A DNA stretch of 32,000 bases, taken from assembly GCF_023169545.1 (NCBI RefSeq), contig NZ_AP019769.1, positions 60,001-92,000 of the forward strand. Reading direction: 5' to 3'. Positions 5,227 to 24,750 of this stretch are shown in pieces (the stretch's first letter is position 1; each line of letters opens with the position of its first letter). The notes beneath the pieces are model-generated. The model did not search any database. It was not told the origin of the DNA and saw only the letters and a list, made by a program, of their open reading frames with translations. Source of the stretch: Nanobdella aerobiophila. GTDB taxonomy: Archaea; Nanobdellota; Nanobdellia; Nanobdellales; Nanobdellaceae. Position numbers and translations under genes: made by a program.

Positions 5227-6143
5227 TACTTTCCTATCTTTTTGGAAATAATATTTATATACTGTGGATTTATACTATACAAATATTCTTTATTCCCTTC
5301 ATGTCTTAGAACTATGTTTTTCCTGTATAATAATCCCAAATATTTTGCAATTGTATTCTTTGGAAGGTCTAATATCCTGGATATCTCTTTAGAAGATAAT
5401 TGGCTTCCAGATAATAATTCCAATATCTTTAGTTGAGTTTCGGATAAATCTAAATCTTCTATTTCATTTATATTTTCTATCTTACCTGTTATAATATCAT
5501 TTACTGGATGTTTCATGTTGGACAATATATTATTAATTTCAATAAATATGGACCTTATATTATTATTATTTTTTCTTATAATTTTTCTTAAATATTCATT
5601 ATCAAATTTTATTTTATTTTTTAATCTATCATTTATTAATTTAATAATTTCATCTTCTGATGGGAGTTTCATCTCTATTTTTTCATAAATCCTATTTAGA
5701 AATGATAGAGAAGCATTCATAACTTGAGGGGATGGTTGTATAAGCATAATGGAATAAACGATTCTATTATCATATAAATATTTTAGTTTTTTTGATATTT
5801 CTTCTGGAAAATTGTAAAATTCATCTAGAATTAATATAATAGGTAATTTATTTTTTATTTTGAAAAATAAGAATTTAATATATAGATTATTATTTATCTC
5901 ATTTTCAATATCTTTATTATATTCGCCATTTATATATATTACATTATATTTATCGATAAAGTCTCTCTTAATTTTAAATGCTAAAGAAGTCTTTCCAGAT
6001 CCTACTGGACCGTATAATAGAATTATTTCGCCACTTAGTATAGAATCTTTTATCTTTTTTATAATATCATCTATACCAATTAAATTATCATTTGGTCTTA
6101 TATCTAGCGGATTTTTATAAAATCCGTATTTACGCCACCACAT
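5226..6143 (-). CDS. AAA+ P-loop ATPase with C-terminal winged-helix DNA-binding domain (short Orc1/Cdc6-like or ExeA/AAA_22-like architecture)
   Basis: 305 aa. Walker A LLYGPVGSGKTS and Walker B ILILDEF. C-terminal wHTH-like LSETQLKILELLSGSQLSSKEISRILDLPKNTIAKYLGLLYRKNIV. The N-terminus YGFYKNPLDIRPND resembles the Y.F..nPF lead-in of ExeA/arch-ATPase-type proteins. Confidence 0.6.
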   Translation of the reverse strand: MWWRKYGFYKNPLDIRPNDNLIGIDDIIKKIKDSILSGEIILLYGPVGSGKTSLAFKIKRDFIDKYNVIYINGEYNKDIENEINNNLYIKFLFFKIKNKLPIILILDEFYNFPEEISKKLKYLYDNRIVYSIMLIQPSPQVMNASLSFLNRIYEKIEMKLPSEDEIIKLINDRLKNKIKFDNEYLRKIIRKNNNNIRSIFIEINNILSNMKHPVNDIITGKIENINEIEDLDLSETQLKILELLSGSQLSSKEISRILDLPKNTIAKYLGLLYRKNIVLRHEGNKEYLYSINPQYINIISKKIGK

Positions 6144-7755
6144 CTTTTAATTCTATATATGTAGCCAAAGACCATAGCTGGTGTAAAGCCCCGGCAATTT
6201 TCATATTATTTGCACTAGCTCTTTCTGGTAAAGTTCCTATCATATATATAAATTCTAAGTTAGATTTTAATATTTTATTTATTATTGAGTTGTATTTTTC
6301 TTTATTTACTTTACATAATGATAATGCAGATATATTATTTATAAAGATCCAAGAATCTCCATTATGCATCGATTTACCTTCATTTTTATAATAATTATCT
6401 TCATTGGAGTTTCCTATAAATTCTTTATCGAATTTTGATATACTAGATAATCCACCCCAATATAAGAGTAAATGATTTAAAGAATAATCGAATAATCTTT
6501 CCCATTCTGGATTTGATAAAAATTTTGGATAGAAATAATAAGATAAGAATATATTTGGCCTAATTTTTTTATTTTTTATGTCATCATACAATGAAGCATC
6601 ATTTATATAATTATATTTTACTGATTTGACTAGTTTATCTAGTTTATCTTTATATTCGTCTTTTTTAGTATAATTATATAAATTATCATAAGAATTCATC
6701 ATTAAAAATTGTATCTCTATTGGATATTGTCTATTTAAAGTATCCATCCAACTCTCATTTGGATATGCTTTAAATAAGAAATATTTCTGATCTAAATAGT
6801 TATTTTCATAAGATATTAATTTTTCTTCTACTATATTTATTATTTTATTAAATTCTTCGTTACTAAATAGGTCCTTAAAGTCGAATAATCTTTTAATATA
6901 TAATCCTATACCATCAGAATTTCCGACATTACTATCTTTTATATTTTTTAATCTTCCATCCATGAGAAAATAATTAGAATATTCTATCAATTTATGTTTT
7001 ACAATATCTTTATTTATTTTATATATACCGTATAAAGATATTAGAGTATCCCTTGTCCATTCTTGAAAATACCATGGAAATCCTGCACTAATATTATTAT
7101 TATTTATAAAGGATTCTATTCTTTTCTTTATTAATTTATTTATTGTAAATTTGCTATTTCCAGAAATATTACTGTCCTCATTAAATATTATCTCTATCCT
7201 ATCTCCATAGAATTTTATTGGGGAATATACATATCTATAATATGGAGGAGATCTCCTATATTCATCATAGTTATAATATATTTTTATCCATTTATCTTGA
7301 TTTTCTTCATATGATTTAAACTTAGAAATTTTTATTTGGTAATTTATATTATCTTTATTAAACTTTATTATTATAAAATTTTTATACTTTTCTATGTTGT
7401 ATATCCTATTAAATTCTTCTGTATCATATAAGTTCCTTATATCAAAATAAACATTTATATATCCTTCTTTATTGGTATTATAAACTAGTTTGCTATTTAA
7501 TAATTTGTATTGTTCAAAATCATCATTTTTATATATAATTTTCAATATATTATAATCTTTCAATAATATGTTCTTTATTTCATTATTTTTAAAATTCTGA
7601 TTTTCAATCTTTTCTATTGTTTTTATATAAAAGTTATTATATGGAAGTAATAATCCAAAATATCTACTATTATATAGTAGAGGTAAAAAGAAAATAAGAT
7701 TCTTTGATGTTATTAAACTATATTCAAAATTATTTAATTCAATATACTCTTCCAT
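6130..7755 (-). CDS. Glycogen debranching enzyme, archaeal type (amylo-alpha-1,6-glucosidase, GDE_C domain)
   Basis: 541 aa. Core motif AGFPWYFQEWTRDTLISLYG matches the GDE_C signature (G.PWF..WGRDt.Is). The C-terminal (alpha/alpha)6-like part has HNGDSW. Overlaps the downstream AAA+ gene by 14 nt. Confidence 0.75.
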   Translation of the reverse strand: MEEYIELNNFEYSLITSKNLIFFLPLLYNSRYFGLLLPYNNFYIKTIEKIENQNFKNNEIKNILLKDYNILKIIYKNDDFEQYKLLNSKLVYNTNKEGYINVYFDIRNLYDTEEFNRIYNIEKYKNFIIIKFNKDNINYQIKISKFKSYEENQDKWIKIYYNYDEYRRSPPYYRYVYSPIKFYGDRIEIIFNEDSNISGNSKFTINKLIKKRIESFINNNNISAGFPWYFQEWTRDTLISLYGIYKINKDIVKHKLIEYSNYFLMDGRLKNIKDSNVGNSDGIGLYIKRLFDFKDLFSNEEFNKIINIVEEKLISYENNYLDQKYFLFKAYPNESWMDTLNRQYPIEIQFLMMNSYDNLYNYTKKDEYKDKLDKLVKSVKYNYINDASLYDDIKNKKIRPNIFLSYYFYPKFLSNPEWERLFDYSLNHLLLYWGGLSSISKFDKEFIGNSNEDNYYKNEGKSMHNGDSWIFINNISALSLCKVNKEKYNSIINKILKSNLEFIYMIGTLPERASANNMKIAGALHQLWSLATYIELKDVVA

Positions 7756-7807
7756 AAAGATCTATTTTCGAAAAATATTTATATTGTTTTATGATATTTA
7801 TTTATTT

Positions 7808-9019
7808 ATGAAAATATTATTTTTATCGTGGGGAATTCTGCCGCAGAAAACCGGTGGCCTAGAAAAAGCCACGTATTATTATTTCAAATATCTTGATAAT
7901 AAAAATAATACAGTATATTTATTTATTCCAAACCTGACTAAAGATGTATATAATTTTTGGTCAAACAAATTAGTGAATTCAAAGATATTTGGGTTAAACA
8001 TAGATACTTTTAAATCTTATATAGACTATTTTCGGTACGAATCTTTTACTTTATATAAAAAAAATCTGGTAGATTATAGATCTGCAGTTAATGAGTATAA
8101 AAATAGGTTAATTGATTTCTTAAAGAATAATAAATTGGATTTTGATATAATATATGCATATGATTGGTTAACAACACCTGCAGCTATAGAGTTGAAAAAG
8201 ATATATAAAAAACCATTAATAATCCATTTTCATTCTCTTGCATATGATAGAGTTGGTGCAAATCCAGATCTATTAAAATATCTTTATGATTATGATTATG
8301 GTATAGAGATAGAAGGATGTAGAAATGCTGATTATGTAATTACTGTTAGTAAGAGAGAAAAAGAAATATTAGAAAAATATTATTTTTGTAATGGTAATAA
8401 GATAAATGTAATATATAATGCTCCGGATGAAGACTTTAAATTGAAGGAAAAAATAAGATCAAAAATAAATGATAAATATAAAATTGTATTATTTTTGGGA
8501 AGAATTACATTGCATAAGGGTCCAGATTATTTGCTAAGAGCAGCCAAGAAAGTATTAGAGAAAAATAAAAATGTATTATTTATATTTGCAGGTACGGGGG
8601 AAATGTTGGATCAGCTAATAAAATTAGCTGCTGAACTAAAAATATCTAAGAATGTAATTTTTACAGGTTGGATTGATGATGAATTGGCAGAATATTTGTA
8701 CTCAATATCCGATATTTTTGTATTACCTTCTATATCCGAACCATTTGGTTTGACTCCTTTTGAAGCATTACAATATAAAGATTATATAATATTGTCTAAA
8801 CAAGCAGGAGTTGCGGAAGTACTAAAAAGTGCATTAAAAATAGATTTTTGGGATGTAGATAAATTAGCAAATTATATATTAGCATTATTGGAGTATAGGG
8901 TTTTAGGTGATTATGAACTAAAATTATGTCTAGATGATATAAAAAATATTTCTTGGGAGGATTCTGTTAATGTTTTATTATCTATTTTTGATAAAGTTAT
9001 CAATATCAATAGATCTTAG
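7808..9019 (+). CDS. Glycogen synthase-like glycosyltransferase (GT5/GT4, GlgA-like)
   Basis: N-terminus MKILFLSWGILPQKTGGLEKA resembles archaeal GlgA (F..lP.K.GGLaea). C-terminal GT-B motif SISEPFGLTPFEALQ. ATG 7808 preferred over the upstream TTG 7784 of the ORF track. Confidence 0.7.
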   Translation: MKILFLSWGILPQKTGGLEKATYYYFKYLDNKNNTVYLFIPNLTKDVYNFWSNKLVNSKIFGLNIDTFKSYIDYFRYESFTLYKKNLVDYRSAVNEYKNRLIDFLKNNKLDFDIIYAYDWLTTPAAIELKKIYKKPLIIHFHSLAYDRVGANPDLLKYLYDYDYGIEIEGCRNADYVITVSKREKEILEKYYFCNGNKINVIYNAPDEDFKLKEKIRSKINDKYKIVLFLGRITLHKGPDYLLRAAKKVLEKNKNVLFIFAGTGEMLDQLIKLAAELKISKNVIFTGWIDDELAEYLYSISDIFVLPSISEPFGLTPFEALQYKDYIILSKQAGVAEVLKSALKIDFWDVDKLANYILALLEYRVLGDYELKLCLDDIKNISWEDSVNVLLSIFDKVININRS

Positions 9020-10150
9020 TATATTCATATAAGATATGAATGAATCATAAGGTGTAGCAAAGGCCTCTTCTCTAAAGTATTTGTGTACATCACCATCAGC
9101 ATTATATTTTAAACTCATATAATAAAAATTATCCGAGGTTGTTAAATATCTTAATACTTTCATTACTTCTTGATTATCTTTATTTTTTTCATATATCTCT
9201 TTTAGATATTCTATAGCCTCTTTCTGTATATTATCACCCATCCATGCTGATAAATCTCTTTCAATATCGGCCCATGATATTAAGTTTTCTATGCTTATTT
9301 CATCTTTGACTTCAAAGCTATTTGATGCTTCATTTATAGTATATGTTTCTATTTCTTTATTCTTACCTATGTATTCTAATAGTTTGTTCCAGAAATTAAA
9401 TATGCCTGTTTCTGGCCATATATGCTCTCCTATTGTTTCAAAGTCCATGAATATATTTATTATATCGCCTGGAGTTTTTTTAATCCACTCATAATACTTA
9501 TCTGCTGTTAATGGATATTCTTCCCAGTTTCTATTACCGAATCTAAATGCTATATCATCGGATAATTTATAATTCCTTAATAATAATCTAAGATTGTTAC
9601 CCTTTAATTTATATACATAATTTGGACTCTTCCAACCTAAAATACTATCTGCTCCTTCTGTTAATGCAGTTTCAAAACCAAGATTATATACTATATTTCC
9701 AATATCATTATTAAATACTAGTTCAAAGTTTCTGAAACTTCTACTATTATAATTAAATAATTCTTTTATTTTTTTCTTATGCATTTTTATTTGCTCTATA
9801 AACTCTTTTTTATCTATTAGATATGATATTGAATGGAAATAGGTTTCCGAAACAATTTCAACATTTCCCGTATCTACAAGTCTTTTCCATAATTCTAATA
9901 TTTCTGGGTGATATAGCTCTAATTGCTCTATTAATGTACCTGAAATTGAAAAAGAAAATTTTAAGTCATATTTTGTACAATTATTATATATCATTTCTAG
10001 AGCTGGTTTATAGGACTTATTTACTACCCTATCAAGTATTCTCTTGTTAATATTATCATTAAAATAATCTTTTGATCCTATATCAAAAAATGAATAATAT
10101 CTTGTTCTTCTAGGCTGGTGTGCATGAAAGTAGAATATTATTCCAGACAT
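8978..10150 (-). CDS. Glycoside hydrolase family 57 protein (alpha-amylase/alpha-glucan-active)
   Basis: 390 aa. N-terminus IIFYFHAHQPRR is the GH57 region-I signature (HQP). Later FMDFETIGEHIWPE resembles the GH57 catalytic-region pattern. The 3' end overlaps the GT gene by 42 nt (convergent). Confidence 0.8.
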   Translation of the reverse strand: MSGIIFYFHAHQPRRTRYYSFFDIGSKDYFNDNINKRILDRVVNKSYKPALEMIYNNCTKYDLKFSFSISGTLIEQLELYHPEILELWKRLVDTGNVEIVSETYFHSISYLIDKKEFIEQIKMHKKKIKELFNYNSRSFRNFELVFNNDIGNIVYNLGFETALTEGADSILGWKSPNYVYKLKGNNLRLLLRNYKLSDDIAFRFGNRNWEEYPLTADKYYEWIKKTPGDIINIFMDFETIGEHIWPETGIFNFWNKLLEYIGKNKEIETYTINEASNSFEVKDEISIENLISWADIERDLSAWMGDNIQKEAIEYLKEIYEKNKDNQEVMKVLRYLTTSDNFYYMSLKYNADGDVHKYFREEAFATPYDSFISYMNILRSIDIDNFIKNR

Positions 10151-10160
10151 AAATATTTTT

Positions 10161-10180
10161 TAAATTATAAATAATATAAA
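10161..10180. promoter_or_regulatory. Candidate back-to-back TATA elements in a 36-nt divergent spacer
   Basis: taaattataaataatataaa lies between the GH57 start (10150, minus) and the small-ORF start (10187, plus). Each start is about 20-30 nt from a TATA-like half. Low specificity in AT-rich DNA. Confidence 0.3.
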
Positions 10181-10186
10181 TCTTTT

Positions 10187-10501
10187 ATGATAAAAATAGA
10201 AAGAGAAAATGAATCTTTTACTACTTTAGATGGACAAAAATTATATGGTATTCAAGATTTAATAATATGGTTATATAACTGCTCAGATTATGATTTTAAA
10301 TATCATAATGATAGAAAAGATTTTTACAATTGGATCTATTACTCTTTAAATGAGAGAGATTTGGCAGAAAAAATAATAAATATAAATAATAAAATTGATT
10401 TAATAAAAATTCTAGATGACTTTATGAAGAGCTTAGAAATATATAATAAAAAGAAGATATCGGATGAAGAAGCTGAAGTAGAGTTTATAAAATATATATA
10501 A
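10187..10501 (+). CDS. Small conserved-looking hypothetical protein, first gene of the ParA/glycogen-synthase operon
   Basis: 104 aa. Pattern F.TLDGQKLYGIQDLIIWL..CSDYDFKYHNDRKDFYNWIYYSLNERDLAEKI. From memory this resembles small DUF5752-type proteins seen near GH57/glycogen genes; unverified. Its stop overlaps the next start (TAATG at 10499-10503). Confidence 0.5.
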   Translation: MIKIERENESFTTLDGQKLYGIQDLIIWLYNCSDYDFKYHNDRKDFYNWIYYSLNERDLAEKIININNKIDLIKILDDFMKSLEIYNKKKISDEEAEVEFIKYI

Positions 10502-11166
10502 TGATAATATCTTTTATATCATTAAAAGGCGGTGTAGGAAAAACTACATTATCAATAAATTTAGGGGCATATCTAAAGAAATTTTACAATTACAAGGTTC
10601 TATTAATTGATACAAATGGAAAATATTCCCAAAATCTATTTTATCTAAAAGAAAATAATTTCTATGGAAATAGATTATGGAATGATATTAAAATTACTCC
10701 ATTTTATCATCTAAAAATAATCGATAGATTACCAGAAACTTATATAAATGATATAAATTATTTAAAGAGGGTATATGATATTATAATATTTGATGTATTT
10801 CCAAATCCAGAATTAATAATAGATATATCTAGAATATCCGATATTATATTTCTAGTAATAAATCCAGATTTTTATTCTTTATATGTTAATAGGAAATTAT
10901 ATAATTATCTAGAAAAAGATAAGGTTAAGATAGTTGTAAATAAATATGACAAATCTTTAGATCTAGATTTTATATCTGAAGTATTTGAAAAGGATGTATA
11001 CTGTGCCATTCCAATGAACAAAGATTTATCTATATTTCAGTATAAATATGCGCCTATATCATTTTATAATGAAAAATCAAAGGCATTAAATTATATAGAT
11101 CAACTATCATATTTAGTTACTGGTAAAAGGATCAAGAAAGGTATATTTAGTAAGATTTTTGGATGA
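10501..11166 (+). CDS. ParA/MinD-family P-loop ATPase (deviant Walker A)
   Basis: 221 aa. Deviant Walker A SLKGGVGKTT with the signature Lys. Walker A' VLLIDTN. Walker B IIIFDVFP. Start overlaps the upstream stop, and its own stop overlaps the next start (ATGA at 11163-11166). Confidence 0.8.
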   Translation: MIISFISLKGGVGKTTLSINLGAYLKKFYNYKVLLIDTNGKYSQNLFYLKENNFYGNRLWNDIKITPFYHLKIIDRLPETYINDINYLKRVYDIIIFDVFPNPELIIDISRISDIIFLVINPDFYSLYVNRKLYNYLEKDKVKIVVNKYDKSLDLDFISEVFEKDVYCAIPMNKDLSIFQYKYAPISFYNEKSKALNYIDQLSYLVTGKRIKKGIFSKIFG

Positions 11167-12779
11167 TACTATTTGAAGAATCTTGGGAGGTATGTAATAA
11201 GGTTGGTGGTATATATACAGTAATAAGTTCGAAAGCTAAATATATAAAGGACGCATTAAATAATAATTATTTTTTGATAGGCCCTTATAAGGATAATAAT
11301 GATTTTATAGAATTAGAACCATTAAATTATATAAAGGAAATAAATAGTTCAATAGATAATATAAAAGTTCATTATGGTTATTGGGATATAGATTCAAAAC
11401 CCTATGTATTTTTAATAGAGTTTGATGATTTTTTAAAAAAAGAAAAAGACCTATGGAAATATAAATTCTGGGAATGGTATAAAATAGACTCTTTAAATTC
11501 GGATTTTACATTTGATGAACCTTTATTATGGTCAATATCAGTAGGTATATTTCTAGAAAAATTACAAAATTATATAAAAGATAAAAAAATATTACATGCG
11601 CATGAATGGTTATCAGGAGGAACAATATTATATATTAAAAAAAAGAATTTGAATTACAAGACTGTATTTACTATACATGGTACTGTAGTTGGACGGTCTA
11701 TATCCGAAAAGAATATAGATGTAATAAAATCTCTAGATTATATTAATGCAGATCAGGATTCATATAGGCTGGGAGTGAATTCTAAGCATCAAATAGAAAA
11801 AAATACAATATTAAATTCCGATATCTTTACTACAGTTTCAGATAATTTAAAATATGAATCATTAAAATTATTTGGCAGAAATCCGGATTATATAACATAT
11901 AATTATATAGATATAAAAGATAAAGATATTATCAAGAATTATAATATAGGGAAAAAATGGATGGATGAATTTTTAACATGGTATTTTTATCCTTATTATG
12001 ATTTGCGTGATGATTATTTATTATTCTATACTATAGGAAGATATGAAATATATAATAAAGGTATAGATCTATATATAGATTTATTAAAATACTTTAATGA
12101 TAAAAATCTAGATATAATATCATTTATATTTGTCCCTTATACAGTAGAAAATATATCTGAAGAAATACTAAAAAATTACAGAAAATATAATGAACTAAAG
12201 AAATATATAGAGGATAATGAATATAATATCATAAGAGGTCTTTATAATAATCAATATTTTTTAAATCCACTAGAAAGGAAAAATAAAAATCCGGAAATAT
12301 GTACTCATAAGACGTCAGAAAATACAATAATTAATCTATTAAAGGAGAATAATCTGTTAAATTCTAAAGAAAACTCTGTAAAAGTCATATATGCACCAAT
12401 ATATTTAGGAAATGATATATTATTTAATATAGAGCAAGAATATTTATTATCGATTTTTGATTTTGGTTTCTTTTTATCCAGATATGAACCATATGGGTAT
12501 ACACCCCTTGAAGCATTAAATAATTATAATCCAATAGTTATCTCAAATAGAACTGGATTTTATAAAACCCTAGAATCTAAAAATATAAAAAATGATTTTA
12601 TAATAAGCATAGATCCATATAATATAGATAAAGAATATTTATATAATAAAATTATAGAATATAAAAATTTAGATAATTACTCTAAATTGAATGTAAAAAA
12701 TCAAATGTATAATATATCTAGACTATTTAGTTGGAAAAATAATATAAATGAATATTTAAATATATATAATAATCTTTAA
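11163..12779 (+). CDS. Glycogen synthase, eukaryote-type (GT3 / Glycogen_syn family)
   Basis: 538 aa. N-terminus [25 protein letters not shown] closely parallels animal/yeast glycogen synthase ([23 protein letters not shown]). The C-terminal [13 protein letters not shown] parallels YYEPWGYTPAEC. Confidence 0.75.
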   Translation: [538 protein letters not shown]

Positions 12780-12804: not shown

Positions 12805-13425
12805 ATGGGAAGTTTTGCATCTCTATTATTAGTTATAATGAATAATCTTGGTTTAAATTTAATATTTTTGTTTCTGTTTTATTTTGGTCTTTTTTATTTT
12901 ATAATATCTTATATACTTAGATTATTACAAAAAAATGATACATCTAAGATTAATATAAATCCAATAGCTATTATATTATCAATCTCTATATCCTACTTAT
13001 TAACGACATTTTCTGGATTTATAGGATTTACCCAATATTTTTTAGCATTTAATACATCTATACTACTTCTATTATTCTTTTTTATACTTATGGGTTCTTT
13101 AATCTCCGGAGGTGCATTAACTGATTCTTTATCTCAGATTGTAAAACTACAGGATCCTAAGCAGGTGCAATCTTCTAATGGTGGGAGGATTATCCTTATA
13201 ACTATTGTAGTATTTTTGATTGTTTTTGGGATATTATCTATGTATTTTGGATATCAAAATTATTTTTTATCATTATCTAGTTCTAATTCTTTACAAGCTC
13301 AGCAATTTTTATCTGTAGGAAATCCATATATCCTATTTTTACTATTTTTCTTTATAATTCTCGGTGTTGGTATAATTTTATTGGGTGCAGGAGGAGATTC
13401 GAAGCCAAAAGGACCAGCTAAATAG
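12805..13425 (+). CDS. Hypothetical polytopic membrane protein
   Basis: 206 aa with about 5 hydrophobic helices and a Gly/Lys/Pro-rich tail (GAGGDSKPKGPAK). No recognisable family. Confidence 0.5.
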   Translation: MGSFASLLLVIMNNLGLNLIFLFLFYFGLFYFIISYILRLLQKNDTSKININPIAIILSISISYLLTTFSGFIGFTQYFLAFNTSILLLLFFFILMGSLISGGALTDSLSQIVKLQDPKQVQSSNGGRIILITIVVFLIVFGILSMYFGYQNYFLSLSSSNSLQAQQFLSVGNPYILFLLFFFIILGVGIILLGAGGDSKPKGPAK

Positions 13426-17207: not shown

Positions 17208-20200
17208 ATGAGTGATAATAGTATAATATCTATAACAGATCTGTATAAGATATTCACTTTTAAGAGTACCAAAGATATAGAAGTACCAAAAAAAATTTCA
17301 GAACAGGTAATTGGGCAAGATTCTGCGCTAGATATAATTAAAAAAGCTGCAAATCAGAAAAGAAATGTACTATTAATAGGAGATCCCGGTACAGGTAAGT
17401 CTATGCTAGCCCAAGCCTTAGCAGAGATAATTTCTGAAAATAAAAATAATATAGATTCTCTAGAGGATATAGTCGTTTTTCCAAATCCCCAGGACGAATA
17501 TAATCCTATAGTTAGAACTTTCCCTGCAGGTACTGGAAAAAAGTTAGTAGATGAAATGAAAAAGAAAATTGCAGAACAGGCAAAATTCTTTCAATATTTC
17601 TATTTGGCTTTATTACTAATAGCATCATTAACTCCATTGTATTTTTATTATGTACAAAATTATATAATGGCAGGATCTACATTTATTGGTTTTATGATAC
17701 TAATAGCAGGTCTATCTTTTTCAATGCAGTTTGTTCAAAAGCAAATATTAAAAGGTGTTCCAAAAGTAATTGTTGATAATAAAGATAAGACTAGTGTTCC
17801 TTTTGTAGATGCGACTGGAGCATTTGAGGGGATGTTGTTTGGTGATGTGCTTCATGATCCCTATCAATGTCTAAGGAAGCAGAATGAAATTTATGTCGTA
17901 AACGGAGAGAAAATAATTCCAATGGAAATTAACAAATTTGTGGAAAATATTTTGAAGGAAAATGAGGATAAATTATTTATTAATGAGGAAAATAATATAA
18001 AAATTGTTGCTACTAAAGTAAATAAACCAATTTATATTCTTGGATATAAAGATGGAAAAATTCAACCTGTTAAAGTTATATCTGTTAATAAAAGAATTGG
18101 TCCTCAAGAGATATATAATATAAATAGTAGAGATGTTGTAATATCTGTTACTCCAGATCATAAAATATTTGATAGAAATTTAAAAATGATAGAAGCAGAG
18201 AATATTAAAAAAGATATATTTTATAGGTTCTATGATAATATAAATATTTTAACAGAAGAAGATATTGTAAGAACATATGGAGAAGAAGAATTAGAAAGAT
18301 ATAAATTATACTTAAAATGGAAGGAATTTAAAGAAAAAAATCCTGGTATAGGATATAAAAAAGCAGCAAAAATATTAAATATACTAGAATTCAAAATAAA
18401 GGAGTGGGAAGAAGGAATGAAACCTCCAAGTTTATATATAATTGGAGAGTTAAAGAAATTGAATTTATTACCATTAAAACTATCTGATGATAGATTATTA
18501 ATTATTGCAAGAATTATTGGTGGATTATTTGGAAATGGAAATATAGATAAAAATTTGAACACTTTAGCATATATATCATCAGAAAAAGAAGCCATTGATA
18601 ATTTCATAAGAGATTTAAAATCTATATTTGGTGATTTTACATATGAAATAAGAGAAAGTGATAAAGCATATTTATTTAGAACTACTGAAAGAAGGATAAT
18701 AAGATTTTTTGTTGCATTGGGTGCTCCAGTTGGTAAAAAAACAGAAATTATATTAAAAATACCAGAGTGGATATACAATAGAAGAGATTTAATACTATCC
18801 TTTTTAGATGGTTTTTATAGTGCAGAAGGTTTTGTACCAAGATATTGGAAATGTAAAGATGGACATAAAATAAAAAATAAAGTAGAAATAATATTGTTAA
18901 ATAAAAATAAGGAAACAATAGAAGAATTAGAAAGGTTTATAGATAAGTTGTATACATTGAGATTAAAAGCGAGATTAAGAATAGAAAGAAGAGATGGAAA
19001 GTATTTAATAAGAATAATGTTTAGTCAATCTTTTGAAAATACTTTTAGATTATATAAATTAATAGGATTTTCATATTCTCCAAGAAAAAGAGAGAGATTT
19101 GAAGAAGTTATTAATTCATATATTAAAGATTATTCAGAATTTAAAAGAAAAAATGTATTAGAAGCTATTCAAATATTGAAGTATAATTATGATAGAAAAT
19201 TATATAGGGTTAAAGAATTAGTAGATGTAACATATAATATAACAACAGAATCTGGTAATTTAATTGTAAATGGCATATTAGTTAAAAATTCTGGAGGACT
19301 AGAAACACCAGCTCATCAAAGGGTAGTTGCAGGTGCGATACATAAAGCAAATAAAGGTGTGCTATTTATAGATGAGATTGGAACATTAAGACCAGAAGTC
19401 CAGATAGAGTTATTAACTGTATTACAAGAAAAGAAATATTCAATATTTGGAAGATCAGAAAGATCGGCTGGTGCCATGGTTAGGACTACTCCCGCACCTG
19501 CAGATTTTATATTAGTAGCAGCAGGTAATTTAGAAACAGTGGAAAAATTACATCCTGCTTTTAGATCAAGAATTAGGGGTTATGGTTATGAAGTATATAT
19601 GAAATCTGAAACGAAGTTTACTAAAGAAACTGCACTAAAATATGCACAGTTTGTTGCTCAGGAAGTTAAAAAATCCGGTAATATACCACCATTTACAAAA
19701 GAAGCCGTTATAGAAGTAATAAAGGAAGCTCAAAGAAGATCCGGAAAAAAAGATTATTTAACATTAAGATTAAGAGATTTAGGTGGATTGATAAGATTAG
19801 CTGGTGATATAGCTAGATTAAAAAATAAAGAATTTGTGGAAGCAGAAGATGTTATAGAGGCTAAAGATAAGGCGCTAACTCTAGAAGATCAAATATCTAG
19901 ATATTATATAGAGAGAAGAAAAGAATATGAATTGATTAAAAATGAGGGAAGTCTTATAGGAAGAGTAAATGGATTAGCAGTAATTGGATCTAAAATATAT
20001 TATTCTGGAATTGTATTGCCTGTGGAAGCAGAAGTTGTTCCTGGAAAAGGAGCAGGGAAGGTAATTGCAACGGGTAATTTAGGAAAGATTGCTAAAGAAG
20101 CAATAATAAATGTATCTACAGTCATTAAGAAGAAATTTAAAGAAGATTTAAAGAAATATGATGTTCATGTACAATTTTTACAAACTTATGAGGGGGTGGA

Positions 20201-20492
20201 AGGCGATTCTGCATCAATTACCGTGGCTACAGCAATAATATCCGCATTAAAAAACTGGCCTGTAAGACAAGATATAGCAATGACAGGATCATTATCTATT
20301 AGGGGAGAAGTATTGCCTATAGGCGGTGTAATAGCAAAAATTGAGGCAGCAATAGAATATGGTTTGAAAGAAGTATTAGTACCAGAAAGTAATTATAATG
20401 ATATTCCGGAAGATTTATTTAATAAGATAAAGATAATACCTGTAAAAACAATAGATGAAGTTATAGATCATGCTTTAATTAAGAATATTTAA
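17208..20492 (+). CDS. lonB: Archaeal membrane-bound Lon protease (LonB), intein-containing precursor
   Basis: Walker A GDPGTGKS. Two TM helices inserted in the AAA+ module (FFQYFYLALLLIASL.., STFIGFMILIAGLSF). Walker B GVLFIDEIG. Protease Ser in EGDSASITVATA and Lys in IGGVIAKIEAA. The extein junction HDPYQ|..|SGGLETPAHQRVVAG is contiguous in intein-free LonB. The mature protein would be 620 aa. Confidence 0.9.
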   Translation: MSDNSIISITDLYKIFTFKSTKDIEVPKKISEQVIGQDSALDIIKKAANQKRNVLLIGDPGTGKSMLAQALAEIISENKNNIDSLEDIVVFPNPQDEYNPIVRTFPAGTGKKLVDEMKKKIAEQAKFFQYFYLALLLIASLTPLYFYYVQNYIMAGSTFIGFMILIAGLSFSMQFVQKQILKGVPKVIVDNKDKTSVPFVDATGAFEGMLFGDVLHDPYQCLRKQNEIYVVNGEKIIPMEINKFVENILKENEDKLFINEENNIKIVATKVNKPIYILGYKDGKIQPVKVISVNKRIGPQEIYNINSRDVVISVTPDHKIFDRNLKMIEAENIKKDIFYRFYDNINILTEEDIVRTYGEEELERYKLYLKWKEFKEKNPGIGYKKAAKILNILEFKIKEWEEGMKPPSLYIIGELKKLNLLPLKLSDDRLLIIARIIGGLFGNGNIDKNLNTLAYISSEKEAIDNFIRDLKSIFGDFTYEIRESDKAYLFRTTERRIIRFFVALGAPVGKKTEIILKIPEWIYNRRDLILSFLDGFYSAEGFVPRYWKCKDGHKIKNKVEIILLNKNKETIEELERFIDKLYTLRLKARLRIERRDGKYLIRIMFSQSFENTFRLYKLIGFSYSPRKRERFEEVINSYIKDYSEFKRKNVLEAIQILKYNYDRKLYRVKELVDVTYNITTESGNLIVNGILVKNSGGLETPAHQRVVAGAIHKANKGVLFIDEIGTLRPEVQIELLTVLQEKKYSIFGRSERSAGAMVRTTPAPADFILVAAGNLETVEKLHPAFRSRIRGYGYEVYMKSETKFTKETALKYAQFVAQEVKKSGNIPPFTKEAVIEVIKEAQRRSGKKDYLTLRLRDLGGLIRLAGDIARLKNKEFVEAEDVIEAKDKALTLEDQISRYYIERRKEYELIKNEGSLIGRVNGLAVIGSKIYYSGIVLPVEAEVVPGKGAGKVIATGNLGKIAKEAIINVSTVIKKKFKEDLKKYDVHVQFLQTYEGVEGDSASITVATAIISALKNWPVRQDIAMTGSLSIRGEVLPIGGVIAKIEAAIEYGLKEVLVPESNYNDIPEDLFNKIKIIPVKTIDEVIDHALIKNI
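17868..19289 (+). mobile_element. Intein (474 aa) with LAGLIDADG homing-endonuclease domain, inserted in lonB
   Basis: Starts with Cys (CLRKQNEIYV, aa 221). Block B ISVTPDHKIF (TxxH). LAGLIDADG-like motifs IIGGLFGNGNID (about 18496-18552) and FLDGFYSAEGFV (about 18791-18836). Block F/G VDVTYNITTESGNLIVNGILVKN, followed by the +1 Ser of SGG. Confidence 0.85.
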
Positions 20493-20517: not shown

Positions 20518-23500
20518 ATGAAGAAGATACTCTATCTTTTATTTTTATTATTGATTTATCCAATATATTCCCAAAATGTTTGGCACGAAAATAATGTATA
20601 TGATCCAGTTACATTTTTAAATATAAGCTTATCAAATAATTATCTTCAACCGAATAATATATTATACTATAATGTTTCTATAAATTATAGAGATATATAT
20701 TATATACCAAATGCATCATTGGTAATACAGATAATTCAAAAAGGTGATAATAATAGCATATATCCATATCAATTTAATAATGATAATGAAATATATGAAT
20801 ATGTAATAAGAAATCTATATTTACAACCCGGGGAAACTATAAATATACCATTAAAATATATAGTACCTTATAATTTAGATCCTGGATACTATTATATTGT
20901 TGCATACTTATATACACCTCTAAACAATATAAATGGTTTGCCATTTATATACTATCCTGGATCATATACAGAATTTTATGTAGATAGTATTAATGGAGGT
21001 TATCCATCAATGTATATTGTAAAAAATGACACTTATCTATCATCTAGTTCTTTATATACATACGGTTCTATATTATACTCTTCAGGATATTATTATTCTT
21101 CATTAAGTGGGCCTACAGGATATGGAGTATCTAATGGTTTAAATATGTCAGTAGATATATATTCTCAAAATAATGCTAATGCCACATTATTATTATTAAT
21201 ATCACCATGGGATGATATTCTATACAGTCCTGTATATAATAATACATATAATATAAATTTGAATTCAGGTTATAATATAATAAACATAGATAATATAAAT
21301 ATTTCAAGTTTACCACCAAATGTATATTCTGCTAGATTAGAATTGCTATATAATAATACAGTAGAATCAATATATAGATTAAGATTTATAGTTTTGGGTC
21401 CAACTACCAGATTAGATGGAGTCTTTTTACAGGGAAATGGAAATCTAACATTTATAGTTGCTCCATCTCCAGATCATTATACGTACCCTACAACTCCAAA
21501 TGTCATTGCCCAAGTATATTCTAATATATTAGGATTTAATGAAAATATATCTCTCGGAAATATAAGTTGGTATAATACTCAATTTACATATGTAAATTTA
21601 CAATTGCCATTAAATTCGACAAAATTTGATTTATGTATAAATTTGTATTCTAATAATAATCTAGATTATAATTATTGTACTTATTATAATATTAATCAAT
21701 CTGATACATATGGTTTACCATTATCTCAATTAGTTTATGTAAATTATACAAATAATTATTTCTATATATGTTCAAATATATCTGGCAATCTAATCGTTGC
21801 ATATAATTCTCCAGCAAATACACTATTATCAACAAATGTAGATAATAATTGTTATAATTATAGTGATATTAGTAATGGAACGTATTATATATCATTTTAT
21901 TCTTCTCAATATTCTAATCAATGGATAATTAATAATACTTACTATCCTTCAAAAACAAATATATTGATAAAACCAATAAAACAACAAAATGATAATATAT
22001 ATTATCTTGCCTTAGTAATAGTTATAATAATAATTTCTATATTATTATATATGATAAAAAGGTGGAAAATATTCGCGATATTTATAGTTGGTCTCGTATT
22101 TTTATCAACTATCCATTCTCAAACTATAACAGTATCACCAACTAATCTATGTTCTCCTTCTGGATCAGTAACCATTACAACTTCAAATTATTCTGGTGAT
22201 GTAAATGTAAATTATACATTCTTTAATCCAAATAATAATTTTGTATATTCTAGTGGTCAATACAAGTATTTTGGTAGTTCTTATTCTTATACAATCGCAT
22301 TGAATAATCTACCAGCCGGTATTAATGTACCAATTGAATATAATATAGATGTTGAAAATTGTACAATTGTTAATTTATCTATTTCATGTAGTTATAATAC
22401 CTACAATGGATATATATATTCAAATTACCCATTTTATTTTGAATACTATTCAAATCCAATATATACTTCCTCAGATGATGCAGCATATATTGTTGCAGGA
22501 TGTTCAAATTCTGAAAATATTATAAATAATACATACTTTAATTTTACTGTAATATTGCCCAATGGAACCAGTATTTTAACAAGGACTAATTGTTCAGGGG
22601 CAGGAGATCCTGATTGGGGACAGAATTTATGTGATTTAAATATATATAATTATGATAATTCAATAGGTAATTATACTTATAATGGATCATATGATTATAA
22701 TGGACAACTATATAATATACCATTTGTAGGAAACCCATTACAAGTATTGGGTGCGTCCGCTGGTACTTTTACCAGTGTTTCTTGTACCCATGCTGTAGCA
22801 GATGTAAGTGCAAATTCTAGCTCTAATCCTCTACAAATTTATTTTAATTACAATGGTCCAAACACAGGTAATTACTATACTTATGATAATGGGGTATATA
22901 TATTAGCCCAGAATACTTCTCTTGGATTTAATGTGAATGGTGGATATAATGGTTTATGTTCAGATGGTGTGACAAATTCAGGAACTCCTTCAATAGCATT
23001 TTGGCTATATTCTACAGATCAATATTTCGATCCAAATTCATCTGTATATATTTTAGGAACTTCCAATGCTGGTATAACATTTAGTAATTATTTTGTGGAT
23101 AGGAGTACAATATATAATATACATCCAAATGAAGGTTTTGTTTTACCATCTGGTTCTCCGTTATGGCTAGCTCTGGAAGGTGGATCTTCTGTCAATGTAT
23201 ATAATTTCAATGAAAATAATCCAGGATATTATATATTATATACAGATTATATAAGAACTGTTTGTGGAAGTCCGGAAGATTATATATGTGATCCAAATGG
23301 TAATCTATGTAGTTATGGCCATATACAAGGCGAAGCCTGGGGATGGTTGCCAATAAACCCCGAACCTGGATATTATTTCTTAGTGATAAATCCAGATGCG
23401 ACAGTTAATGTTCAAAATATAAGTTATTATCCTTATATATATAATATAAATCCCGGTGATCCTATATATCTCGGATATATTGATAATATAGGAATTGGTA

Positions 23501-24750
23501 ATCTAACTGTAGGAGAAAATTATATATTGCCAGATCCAATATTGGTAAATAATAATTTCTTATTGCAAGAAAATCAAAATATATCCTTATATGCATATTT
23601 TCCAACAAATGAATGTTCTCATGTAAGCTGTCAAATACCATACAATGTTAGTTATCAAAATGCATACGGATTAACAGTATATAGTCCAGTGGAGTATTCT
23701 GGATATATAAATATATATTGGGATAATTTGTCTGTTTATACAAATCCATCAATAACGAAGATTACTTATGGACCAGTTAATCTAACTATAGGAGTAGAAA
23801 ATTTAGGACCTGTGCCAGCAGAAAATGTTTCTATATATAATTTACAATATGATCCTGCATGTGTACAAATATTAAATATTTATAATGATTCACTAATAAA
23901 CCCGGGCGCTACCGCATATTTAAATATAGAGATAAATATAACTAATTCAAATTGCAACCCACAAGATTATAATATATCATTTAGTGTATATGGTTGGAAT
24001 ACATATATATATAATTACTCTTTATTATTACCATTAAATCAGGTAAATAATCCTCCAAATGGCGTACAATTAAGCTCTAATACCGTATTTAATATAAAAG
24101 ATATAAATTATCAAGCATGTTATATATCATTTAATAATGCTCAATATCCAAGAAATTGTAATTCTGATTTCTTATATCAAAATGGAATGTGTGCTGGTTC
24201 TATATGTAATACAGAAGTAATTACAGATAATCAATATGCACAATTTGACAATTATTATACATATTATAATTATCTAACCAATTCCAGTTCTATATTTGGA
24301 GTATCATCCTCTAGTCAAGTAATATCTATATATGTAGGCCAACAATATAATTATCAGGTATTAATAAAAAATCTAGTACCATCTCAAATAAATTGTACAA
24401 TAGATACATTGCCAATAATATCAAATGATGACGCACAAGTACTATATTTTAATATAAACGGAATAAATAATCTTAACTTTACCATAGGTCCTGATGGCGT
24501 TGCTAATCTATATATTAATGTCTTGGGTTTGAAATCCGGTGTAGCTAATTTAATATATGGATTTACATGTAATAGTTTATACGGATCATCTACATATAGT
24601 CAAGAAGTGCCTGTATATGTTCTAGAGCCAAATGGACAACTAGCAAATAATGTTAGTAACTTGATTACATCAGAGGAAATAAGTCCTGGAGAATTAATAG
24701 GAGTTTCTATAGGTATATTAGCAGTAGCACTAACACTTGGGCTAATATAA
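20518..24750 (+). CDS. Giant surface protein ORF: two signal-peptide/TM-anchor modules fused in frame (module 1 20518-22050, module 2 22051-24750)
   Basis: 1410 aa. N-terminal signal MKKILYLLFLLLIYPIYS|QN. Mid-ORF anchor-like TM helix YLALVIVIIIISILLY, followed immediately by MIKRWKIFAIFIVGLVFLSTIHS|QT (a second signal-peptide-like segment, Met at 22051). Final C-terminal TM helix LIGVSIGILAVALTLGLI*. Sequon-rich. Module 2 has about 25 Cys and a CARDB-like stretch (PVNLTIGVENLGPVPAENVSIYNL, about 23740-23960). Confidence 0.65.
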   Translation: MKKILYLLFLLLIYPIYSQNVWHENNVYDPVTFLNISLSNNYLQPNNILYYNVSINYRDIYYIPNASLVIQIIQKGDNNSIYPYQFNNDNEIYEYVIRNLYLQPGETINIPLKYIVPYNLDPGYYYIVAYLYTPLNNINGLPFIYYPGSYTEFYVDSINGGYPSMYIVKNDTYLSSSSLYTYGSILYSSGYYYSSLSGPTGYGVSNGLNMSVDIYSQNNANATLLLLISPWDDILYSPVYNNTYNINLNSGYNIINIDNINISSLPPNVYSARLELLYNNTVESIYRLRFIVLGPTTRLDGVFLQGNGNLTFIVAPSPDHYTYPTTPNVIAQVYSNILGFNENISLGNISWYNTQFTYVNLQLPLNSTKFDLCINLYSNNNLDYNYCTYYNINQSDTYGLPLSQLVYVNYTNNYFYICSNISGNLIVAYNSPANTLLSTNVDNNCYNYSDISNGTYYISFYSSQYSNQWIINNTYYPSKTNILIKPIKQQNDNIYYLALVIVIIIISILLYMIKRWKIFAIFIVGLVFLSTIHSQTITVSPTNLCSPSGSVTITTSNYSGDVNVNYTFFNPNNNFVYSSGQYKYFGSSYSYTIALNNLPAGINVPIEYNIDVENCTIVNLSISCSYNTYNGYIYSNYPFYFEYYSNPIYTSSDDAAYIVAGCSNSENIINNTYFNFTVILPNGTSILTRTNCSGAGDPDWGQNLCDLNIYNYDNSIGNYTYNGSYDYNGQLYNIPFVGNPLQVLGASAGTFTSVSCTHAVADVSANSSSNPLQIYFNYNGPNTGNYYTYDNGVYILAQNTSLGFNVNGGYNGLCSDGVTNSGTPSIAFWLYSTDQYFDPNSSVYILGTSNAGITFSNYFVDRSTIYNIHPNEGFVLPSGSPLWLALEGGSSVNVYNFNENNPGYYILYTDYIRTVCGSPEDYICDPNGNLCSYGHIQGEAWGWLPINPEPGYYFLVINPDATVNVQNISYYPYIYNINPGDPIYLGYIDNIGIGNLTVGENYILPDPILVNNNFLLQENQNISLYAYFPTNECSHVSCQIPYNVSYQNAYGLTVYSPVEYSGYINIYWDNLSVYTNPSITKITYGPVNLTIGVENLGPVPAENVSIYNLQYDPACVQILNIYNDSLINPGATAYLNIEINITNSNCNPQDYNISFSVYGWNTYIYNYSLLLPLNQVNNPPNGVQLSSNTVFNIKDINYQACYISFNNAQYPRNCNSDFLYQNGMCAGSICNTEVITDNQYAQFDNYYTYYNYLTNSSSIFGVSSSSQVISIYVGQQYNYQVLIKNLVPSQINCTIDTLPIISNDDAQVLYFNINGINNLNFTIGPDGVANLYINVLGLKSGVANLIYGFTCNSLYGSSTYSQEVPVYVLEPNGQLANNVSNLITSEEISPGELIGVSIGILAVALTLGLI

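Follow-up and report, generated by a model that had tools for sequence, protein, structure and literature searches.

Genes and proteins of the locus

In the genome of the tiny symbiotic archaeon Nanobdella aerobiophila, the gene for a eukaryote-type glycogen synthase is preceded by a gene for a MinD-type ATPase and by one for a small protein of the DUF5752 family, and this three-gene arrangement, its recurrence in other genomes and its possible purpose are the subject of this study. The window, whose positions serve as gene coordinates throughout, is the whole 32,000-nt stretch of DNA that was analysed (contig NZ_AP019769.1, positions 60,001 to 92,000 of the forward strand; GC content about 24%). 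All three genes lie on the plus strand: the small gene at 10187..10501 (104 aa), the ATPase gene at 10501..11166 (221 aa) and the synthase gene at 11163..12779 (538 aa). Direct reading of the sequence places the overlap of the first two at TAATG (10499-10503) and that of the last two at ATGA (11163-11166). A preliminary annotation made from the DNA letters alone (the sequence-only reading) had described these genes, overlaps and products; the overlaps proved exact, the map of open reading frames (ORFs) has the three genes, and Pfam bears out the ATPase and the synthase.

The 538-aa protein is, on its match to PF05693 (Glycogen_syn; 239.5 bits against a cut-off of 27, 1.1e-70), a GT3-family glycogen synthase, and a genome scan found orthologues in 80 genomes (80 loci). 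We take the KEGG entry K00693 to be a GT3-type enzyme as well. That entry, called glycogen synthase in the paper that counted it, occurs in 55% of complete Woesearchaeales genomes. Archaeal GT3 enzymes are enzymatically uncharacterised, the priming, regulation and localisation of those in DPANN archaea are unknown, and whether they have a glycogenin-like partner or primer is, in the words of a 2024 review, an open question (PMC11046441). Glycogen is thought to lend symbiotic nanoarchaea a limited independence from their hosts (PMC4935971).

The small protein is, at the level of profiles, a divergent member of DUF5752 (PF19027), the family that the sequence-only reading had named for checking. 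On its own it scores 15.7 bits against that family, below the Pfam gathering cut-off of 23, and a single-sequence search with it found only one relative. A profile of five orthologues from Nanopusillaceae reaches the PF19027-annotated proteins P0141 (4e-9) and P0142 (3e-5), three of the five orthologues match DUF5752 themselves (E values down to 5e-4), and a 22-sequence profile, taken to an E value of 1e-3, retrieves 4504 cluster representatives, those sampled being Pfam-positive for DUF5752. The AlphaFold2 model (mean predicted local distance difference test, pLDDT, 88) combines a beta-hairpin with four short helices and one long helix at the C-terminus; nothing in the PDB matched better than E 0.03 by sequence or E 1.5 by fold (Foldseek). 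We found no paper that mentions DUF5752. The nearest eukaryotic parallel, glycogenin with glycogen synthase, also gives a GT3 synthase a small protein partner of its own, but DUF5752 lacks the GT8 catalytic domain and any detectable similarity to glycogenin, and nothing tested implies priming.

The 221-aa protein matches the MinD/ParA nucleotide-binding families AAA_31 (2.6e-14) and CbiA (2.7e-12) of Pfam, and its Nanopusillus acidilobi orthologue (Nps_00380) is assigned to arCOG00589. The deviant Walker A motif KGGVGKT (10525..10545, plus strand), which includes the signature lysine K9, is invariant in orthologue alignments; K9, G10-G13, K14, T15, D37 and D98 are unchanged in 11 orthologues. 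Since no aligned orthologue departs from the Walker A, A' and B residues, the ATPase is probably active. The protein has the features of the deviant-Walker-A superfamily and reaches no curated subfamily threshold, so that its MinD likeness is one of ranking only: it scores 42.4 bits with TIGR01969 minD_arch (cut-off 201.75), 23.8 with TIGR01968 minD_bact (212.9), 46 with NF041546 ParA_partition (180) and 37 with TIGR03371 cellulose_yhjQ, the BcsQ model (157.85).

With the single sequence, the best PDB match is Sulfolobus SegA (1.9e-6), which has a near-identical N-terminal Walker A region; with an 11-sequence profile, an archaeal MinD ranks first over its full length (1ION, 7e-11), above SegA. 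The best matches of the nanoarchaeal hidden Markov model (HMM) outside its own group are DPANN MinDs (75, 70 and 62 bits), ParA types reaching at most 48. The AlphaFold2 model (pLDDT 85.7; predicted template-modelling score 0.86) has MinD, Soj, SegA, FlhG and BcsQ as top Foldseek matches, all with probability 1.00, and the template-modelling (TM) scores are 0.78 for the MinD structures 4V03 and 1HYQ, 0.76 for 1ION, 0.70 for SegA and 0.66-0.69 for BcsQ. Orthologues are 59-66% identical and confined to Nanopusillaceae, beyond which the next matches fall to E values of about 1e-7; by this drop the ATPase, an archaeal protein of MinD type, belongs to a fast-evolving lineage. The sequence-only reading had called it a ParA/MinD ATPase, of which the MinD half and the deviant Walker A motif stand and the ParA half does not. 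Compared with typical MinDs it is about 40 residues shorter, has no MinC or MinE gene adjacent to it, and is flanked by DUF5752 and glycogen synthase genes. Among archaeal MinD homologues, Haloferax MinD4 positions archaella and chemosensory arrays, cargo unrelated to division.

Several other assignments were considered and set aside. An Mrp/NBP35-type iron-sulphur carrier, which the sequence-only reading had named as a finding that would tell against it, is excluded by a single cysteine, the lack of a CxxC motif and scores under threshold (PF10609, 22 bits against 27.1; MrpORP, 16.6 against 450). A ParA partition protein is rejected, the neighbours being DUF5752 and GT3 genes with no ParB or SegB and the family score being missed. 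SegA is of the same size (220 aa), but a SegB-type gene is missing, the small gene lies upstream and encodes a DUF5752 protein, and the profile search puts archaeal MinD first; SegA orthology is therefore downgraded. BcsQ itself is dismissed as well, the full-length models being missed and the small protein having no BcsR match.

The comparison with BcsQ nevertheless deserves more than a family assignment, as by gene logic the locus is closest to bcsR-bcsQ-bcsA, in which genes for a small protein and a MinD/ParA-family ATPase lie just upstream of a polysaccharide synthase. BcsR and BcsQ are required for assembly and polar placement of the enterobacterial cellulose synthase. By analogy, the ATPase might bind the small protein stably, and the pair might serve to assemble or stabilise the glycosyltransferase or to gate it allosterically; the ATP/ADP state would then be an energy sensor for glycogen synthesis, with neither positioning nor membrane cycling. 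The gene order speaks for such an arrangement, as do a marginal match to Pfam CBP_BcsQ (PF06564; 23.2 bits against 21.3, covering residues 3-40 only), the presence of BcsRQ structures among the fold neighbours and the BcsQ label that JGI gives to many orthologues. The missed BcsQ thresholds, the better superposition of MinD structures and the descent of the small protein from DUF5752, to which BcsR is unrelated, tell against it, and the Bcs synthase is an integral-membrane GT2 enzyme that exports cellulose, whereas that of the window is a soluble-type GT3 alpha-glucan synthase. With the exchange of anchors described below, which points to localisation and not catalysis, we consider this explanation unlikely.

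The surroundings are those of a glycogen island, as the sequence-only reading had it. Pfam identifies a GDE_C amylo-alpha-1,6-glucosidase of debranching type (6130..7755, minus strand), a GT4/GT5-type, GlgA-like glycosyltransferase (7784..9019, plus strand; also by NCBIfam) and a GH57 glucan enzyme (8978..10150, minus strand) that is divergent from the three genes. The GT4/GT5 and GH57 genes are convergent, their 3' ends overlapping by 42 nt, and are arranged in the same way at loci L003 and L008. Between the GH57 gene and the small gene, an AT-rich intergenic region of 36 bp (10151..10186) offers, by the ORF map, the sole room for a promoter ahead of the three overlapping genes and presumably contains one. 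On the other side, 25 nt downstream of the synthase gene, lies a gene for a multi-pass membrane protein (12805..13425, plus strand; 206 aa) that is annotated with five transmembrane segments and has no Pfam match. It is kept at the same position in N. acidilobi and at L003, where it overlaps the GT3 stop codon, and is absent at L008; it may be a fourth member of the operon or a membrane receptor. A role in defence was discarded, none of the four operon proteins having a PADLOC match.

Elsewhere in the window, a LonB protease gene (17208-20492) encodes 1094 aa, its L003 homologue being annotated as 623 aa. About 600 residues without a Pfam match separate the Walker A region (about residues 54-78) from the remainder of the AAA module, which resumes at about residue 678, and this insert is probably an intein. 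Directly downstream, the ORF at 20518-24750 encodes 1410 aa without a Pfam match.

Recurrence of the gene order in other genomes

The tight coupling of the three genes had been taken, in the sequence-only reading, as a pointer to function. Overlaps are common in the window (six of the 17 same-strand adjacent gene pairs, functionally unrelated pairs among them), so that translational coupling alone is weak evidence, and it is the recurrence of the gene order far beyond the family that carries the argument. The loci of the GT3 scan were searched with HMMs for DUF5752 and MinD built in this analysis. The DUF5752-MinD-GT3 trio, with overlapping genes, is present in all ten Nanopusillaceae-type genomes sampled. 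Outside that family, DUF5752-like genes stand beside stand-alone archaeal GT3 genes at 23 of 42 loci, often as two paralogues and usually without MinD, and at L004, which has no MinD, the DUF5752 stop codon ends where the GT3 start codon has its first base. Not one of the 32 GT3 loci of fusion type, bacterial or Heimdall, has a DUF5752-like gene. On these counts and on the direct abutment at L004, the conserved core is the DUF5752-GT3 pair, to which MinD is an accessory. At the fusion-type loci, which come from Bacteroidales and other bacteria (L057, L059-L089) and from one Heimdall metagenome-assembled genome (L065), GT3 occupies the N-terminal end of a longer ORF (about 1400 aa), and no MinD gene was found nearby either.

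The accessory does recur at a distance. Three of the 42 archaeal loci outside Nanopusillaceae (L042, L045 and L053), in distant metagenome-assembled genomes whose GT3 proteins are 31-33% identical, have a MinD gene between DUF5752 genes and GT3, and the MinD of these distant DPANN glycogen operons is a clear archaeal MinD (1ION at 4.6e-35). At L045 it stands within a same-strand operon of ten genes (GT4/5, GH57, DUF5752, long DUF5752, MinD, GT3, GalT-like, PGM, GDE_C and ROK). A metagenome scan with the Woesearchaeota-type MinD, which uncovered a large DPANN MinD family, added a DUF5752-MinD-GT3 locus (L091), a GT3-PGM-PAS/winged helix-turn-helix (wHTH)-DUF5752-MinD locus (L099) and one with PAS, GT4/5, DUF5752 and MinD genes (L106); a further DUF5752-MinD pair (L139) lies on a contig of 1.7 kb that is too short for its context to be judged. 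The survey of GT3 neighbourhoods that the sequence-only reading had proposed thus finds the trio in distant lineages, with MinD at a small minority of the loci. Because the gene order recurs in these distant DPANN lineages, the view that the ATPase is tied to the glycogen-synthase module, and is not there by chance, is supported by the comparison.

The contrary view is that the ATPase is a coincidental neighbour, a general MinD or SegA-like housekeeping protein concerned with chromosome or cell-pole organisation, and that the overlaps reflect genome compaction. It draws on the frequency of overlaps in the window, on the synteny of the whole region across Nanopusillaceae (the SBDS, proteasome and TFB genes included), on SegA as the best single-sequence PDB match and on the failure to detect the ATPase in the N. 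acidilobi proteome. Yet the MinD-GT3 linkage recurs where the neighbourhoods are otherwise different, there is no adjacent SegB- or ParB-like gene, the partner upstream belongs to a family that is itself GT3-linked, and the profile search prefers archaeal MinD to SegA. Moreover, N. acidilobi has, by its gene table, two MinD/ParA genes of arCOG00589, Nps_00380 in the glycogen cluster and Nps_03280 elsewhere, so that the copy in the glycogen cluster need not be the housekeeping one. We judge a chance association to be quite improbable. The second paralogue is likewise preceded by a gene for an uncharacterised protein, Nps_03275 (PMC4935971, Supplementary Data 2).

Another explanation grants the association and moves the cargo. 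DUF5752 and MinD could form a self-contained module with some other client or output, such as signalling with PAS-wHTH regulators, GT3 being linked to DUF5752 only and not positioned by MinD. Two DUF5752-MinD pairs, at L146 and L150, have no glycogen gene within 5 kb, although 5 kb is all the flank that was examined there, and at four unrelated metagenomic loci the pair has a gene for a PAS and/or wHTH regulator next to it or elsewhere in its cluster: L099 (3786-4448, PAS and wHTH), L106 (1317-1982, PAS only, separated from the pair by the GT4/5 gene), L146 (3041-3724, PAS and wHTH) and L150 (4023-4637, wHTH only). DUF5752 also occurs in tandem elsewhere and as a fusion partner of P-loop ATPases; in P0160, P0183, P0154, P0200 and P0210 it is joined to a KaiC-like or to a HerA-like (HerA/DUF87-type) domain, the latter also with CarboxypepD_reg repeats. 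By these fusions DUF5752 may be a general partner domain of P-loop ATPases. Set against a self-contained module is the position of MinD between DUF5752 and GT3, in one operon, in the window and at L042, L045, L053 and L091, and we would give it little chance of being correct. Given the KaiC fusions, it is worth recording that L008, from a nano-like lineage of Great Boiling Spring, has a gene for a KaiC-like ATPase (9590-10357, minus strand; PF06745 and DUF7125) two genes downstream of GT3.

C-terminal ends of the DUF5752 proteins and the ATPases

GT3 loci with and without MinD differ in the way in which a DUF5752 protein ends. At 12 GT3 loci that lack MinD, one DUF5752 protein has its domain at the N-terminus and finishes in a hydrophobic 19-mer (mean Kyte-Doolittle value 2.1-3.3) that stops 0-9 residues from the C-terminus, and at eight of the 12 this tail-anchored gene is directly upstream of GT3. 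Such a tail is found in none of the DUF5752 proteins encoded beside MinD, and in 25 of 147 representatives of the family at large. The long DUF5752 proteins beside MinD in glycogen operons end instead in LKRVFK, LKKVYR or LKRVYE.

This ending is shared well beyond DUF5752. Where a gene ends at the start of a DPANN minD gene, its product carries a common C-terminal peptide, approximately (K/R)(K/R)xx(I/L/M)(L/I)xxLKEVY, and a peptide of the form LK(K/E/R)V(Y/F) is present in 25 of the 30 ORFs whose ends lie no more than 12 nt from the minD start; among background ORFs 7 of 621 have it, and among ORFs ending at a greater distance upstream of minD, 2 of 23. The proteins concerned are otherwise diverse, comprising products of 40-66-aa ORFs (some cut by contig ends), DUF5752 proteins and surface-like proteins of 900-1667 aa; examples among loci L094-L150 are L100 (2234-5002), L102 (2-5005), L103 (1835-4999), L112 (2-583), L121 (2-4987) and L125 (538-4956). 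In the L112 product a basic cytoplasmic tail ending in LKGVYKI comes after a transmembrane helix. That the same ending is found whatever the rest of the upstream product looks like suggests that DPANN MinDs recognise their clients by a shared C-terminal peptide.

The MinDs, for their part, end in basic amphipathic tails. In the window the last residues of the ATPase, GKRIKKGIFSKIFG (11122..11163, plus strand; net charge +5), form a putative membrane-targeting helix of the KKG-hh-xK-hh-G type, with hydrophobic residues at i, i+1, i+4 and i+5 in every aligned orthologue. It resembles the membrane-targeting tail of Escherichia coli MinD. The tail has the highest hydrophobic moment of the whole protein in the MinDs of L008, L042 and L045. 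In the AlphaFold2 model of the window ATPase a terminal helix spans residues 215-220, with low confidence.

The simplest reading of these endings is that, in bringing DUF5752 to the membrane, a transmembrane tail anchor can stand in for a MinD together with a MinD-binding peptide, and the reverse, and by gene linkage the same placement would extend to the GT3 synthase. The small protein of the window is built like the anchored class, with the domain at the N-terminus, and HMM alignments reach into a helix that only this class shares; most nanoarchaeal orthologues keep a tail motif of their own, EEAE(V/I)xF(I/S)K.

A possible membrane tether for glycogen synthase

The gene identities, the gene orders and their linkage, the exchange of anchor for peptide and the amphipathic tails are observations, and upon them we propose that the three genes form one operon in which the DUF5752 protein is an adaptor between the synthase, as cargo, and a membrane-seated MinD-type ATPase, the whole acting as an ATP-switchable tether or positioning device. 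With ATP bound, MinD would form a sandwich dimer by way of its signature lysine, the basic amphipathic tail at its C-terminus seating it on the cytoplasmic membrane. It would hold the DUF5752 protein, which in turn would hold the synthase or the nascent glucan, and hydrolysis of ATP would free the complex. Such a module could govern the place, and perhaps the timing, of glycogen synthesis in these very small cells. Most other DPANN archaea would have that task performed constitutively by the DUF5752 paralogue with a C-terminal transmembrane anchor, for which MinD and a MinD-binding peptide would be an ATP-switchable replacement. We regard this proposal, the likeliest of those considered, as evenly poised between right and wrong.

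Several observations weigh against it. The LKEVY-type peptide is not recognisable in the small proteins of nanoarchaea, whose position-specific scores of -5 to -20 lie within background (mean -12.9), so that the link between adaptor and MinD in the window rests on adjacency and analogy. The tail of the window ATPase has a hydrophobic moment that is only moderate (rank 13 of 211). Within Nanopusillaceae, region-wide synteny and the commonness of overlaps make conservation of the trio weak and not independent evidence. At 71 of 80 loci of Woesearchaeota-type MinD relatives neither GT3 nor DUF5752 is nearby, many of these contigs being short, and the MinD family as a whole is therefore not glycogen-specific; the pairs at L146 and L150 likewise lack glycogen genes over the flanks covered. 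The N. acidilobi proteome contains the GT3 orthologue Nps_00385, and neither the small protein (Nps_00375) nor MinD (Nps_00380) was detected in it. The nanoarchaeal and Woesearchaeota-type MinDs may be orthologous or may have been recruited independently, HMM cross-scores leaning toward DPANN MinD. Finally, the contacts between the proteins, the binding to membrane and the physiological purpose are what we infer from these patterns.

The proposal also departs from the nearest ParA-type precedent. McdA and McdB of carboxysomes, like other ParA-adaptor-cargo systems, share its logic, in which a small adaptor goes with an ATPase and a metabolic cargo, and have the genes for adaptor and ATPase side by side. 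Their ATPases work on the surface of the nucleoid and are not known to have a membrane-targeting tail. The adaptors are unrelated; the surface proposed here is that of the membrane, and an enzyme takes the place of a compartment as cargo. A role in positioning or assembling cargo, glycogen granules or the synthase, had been suggested in the sequence-only reading, together with the small protein as possible adaptor. The first idea gains from the recurrence of the synthase linkage in distant DPANN archaea, with the difference that the replacement of a tail anchor by MinD favours membrane tethering of the synthase over granule spacing. The second is plausible, since the Woesearchaeota-type counterpart bears the MinD-adjacent peptide, which the nanoarchaeal protein lacks. 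Its interpretation as a whole is thus partly supported.

A broader version of the tethering proposal, which we put forward as tentative and probably too generous, is that DUF5752 is the missing dedicated partner of DPANN GT3 synthases and brings glycogen synthesis to the membrane, that its anchors (a transmembrane tail or an ATP-switchable, LKEVY-recruited MinD) are interchangeable, and that DPANN MinDs are general positioners that read this C-terminal peptide on the product of the gene before them, giant single-pass surface proteins included. According to two independent 2026 preprints, the division site is placed not by MinD but by an unrelated Ras-like GTPase oscillator (Dip/Arco), in Haloferax as in many archaea that use FtsZ, which would leave archaeal MinDs free for cargo roles.

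Among the titles and abstracts that keyword searches returned, no paper linked ParA or MinD to glycogen or glycogen synthase, in keeping with the sequence-only reading, which knew of no ParA-type system for glycogen. If the tether is real, MinD with DUF5752 would add to the ParA/MinD family a cargo for which we found no description, and would provide a concrete function for an archaeal MinD. The exchange of a tail anchor for MinD amounts to a natural experiment. If the LKEVY peptide marks MinD clients generally, many DPANN proteins of unknown role would become interpretable, the surface giants among them, and these giant single-pass clients may mediate contact between DPANN archaea and their hosts.

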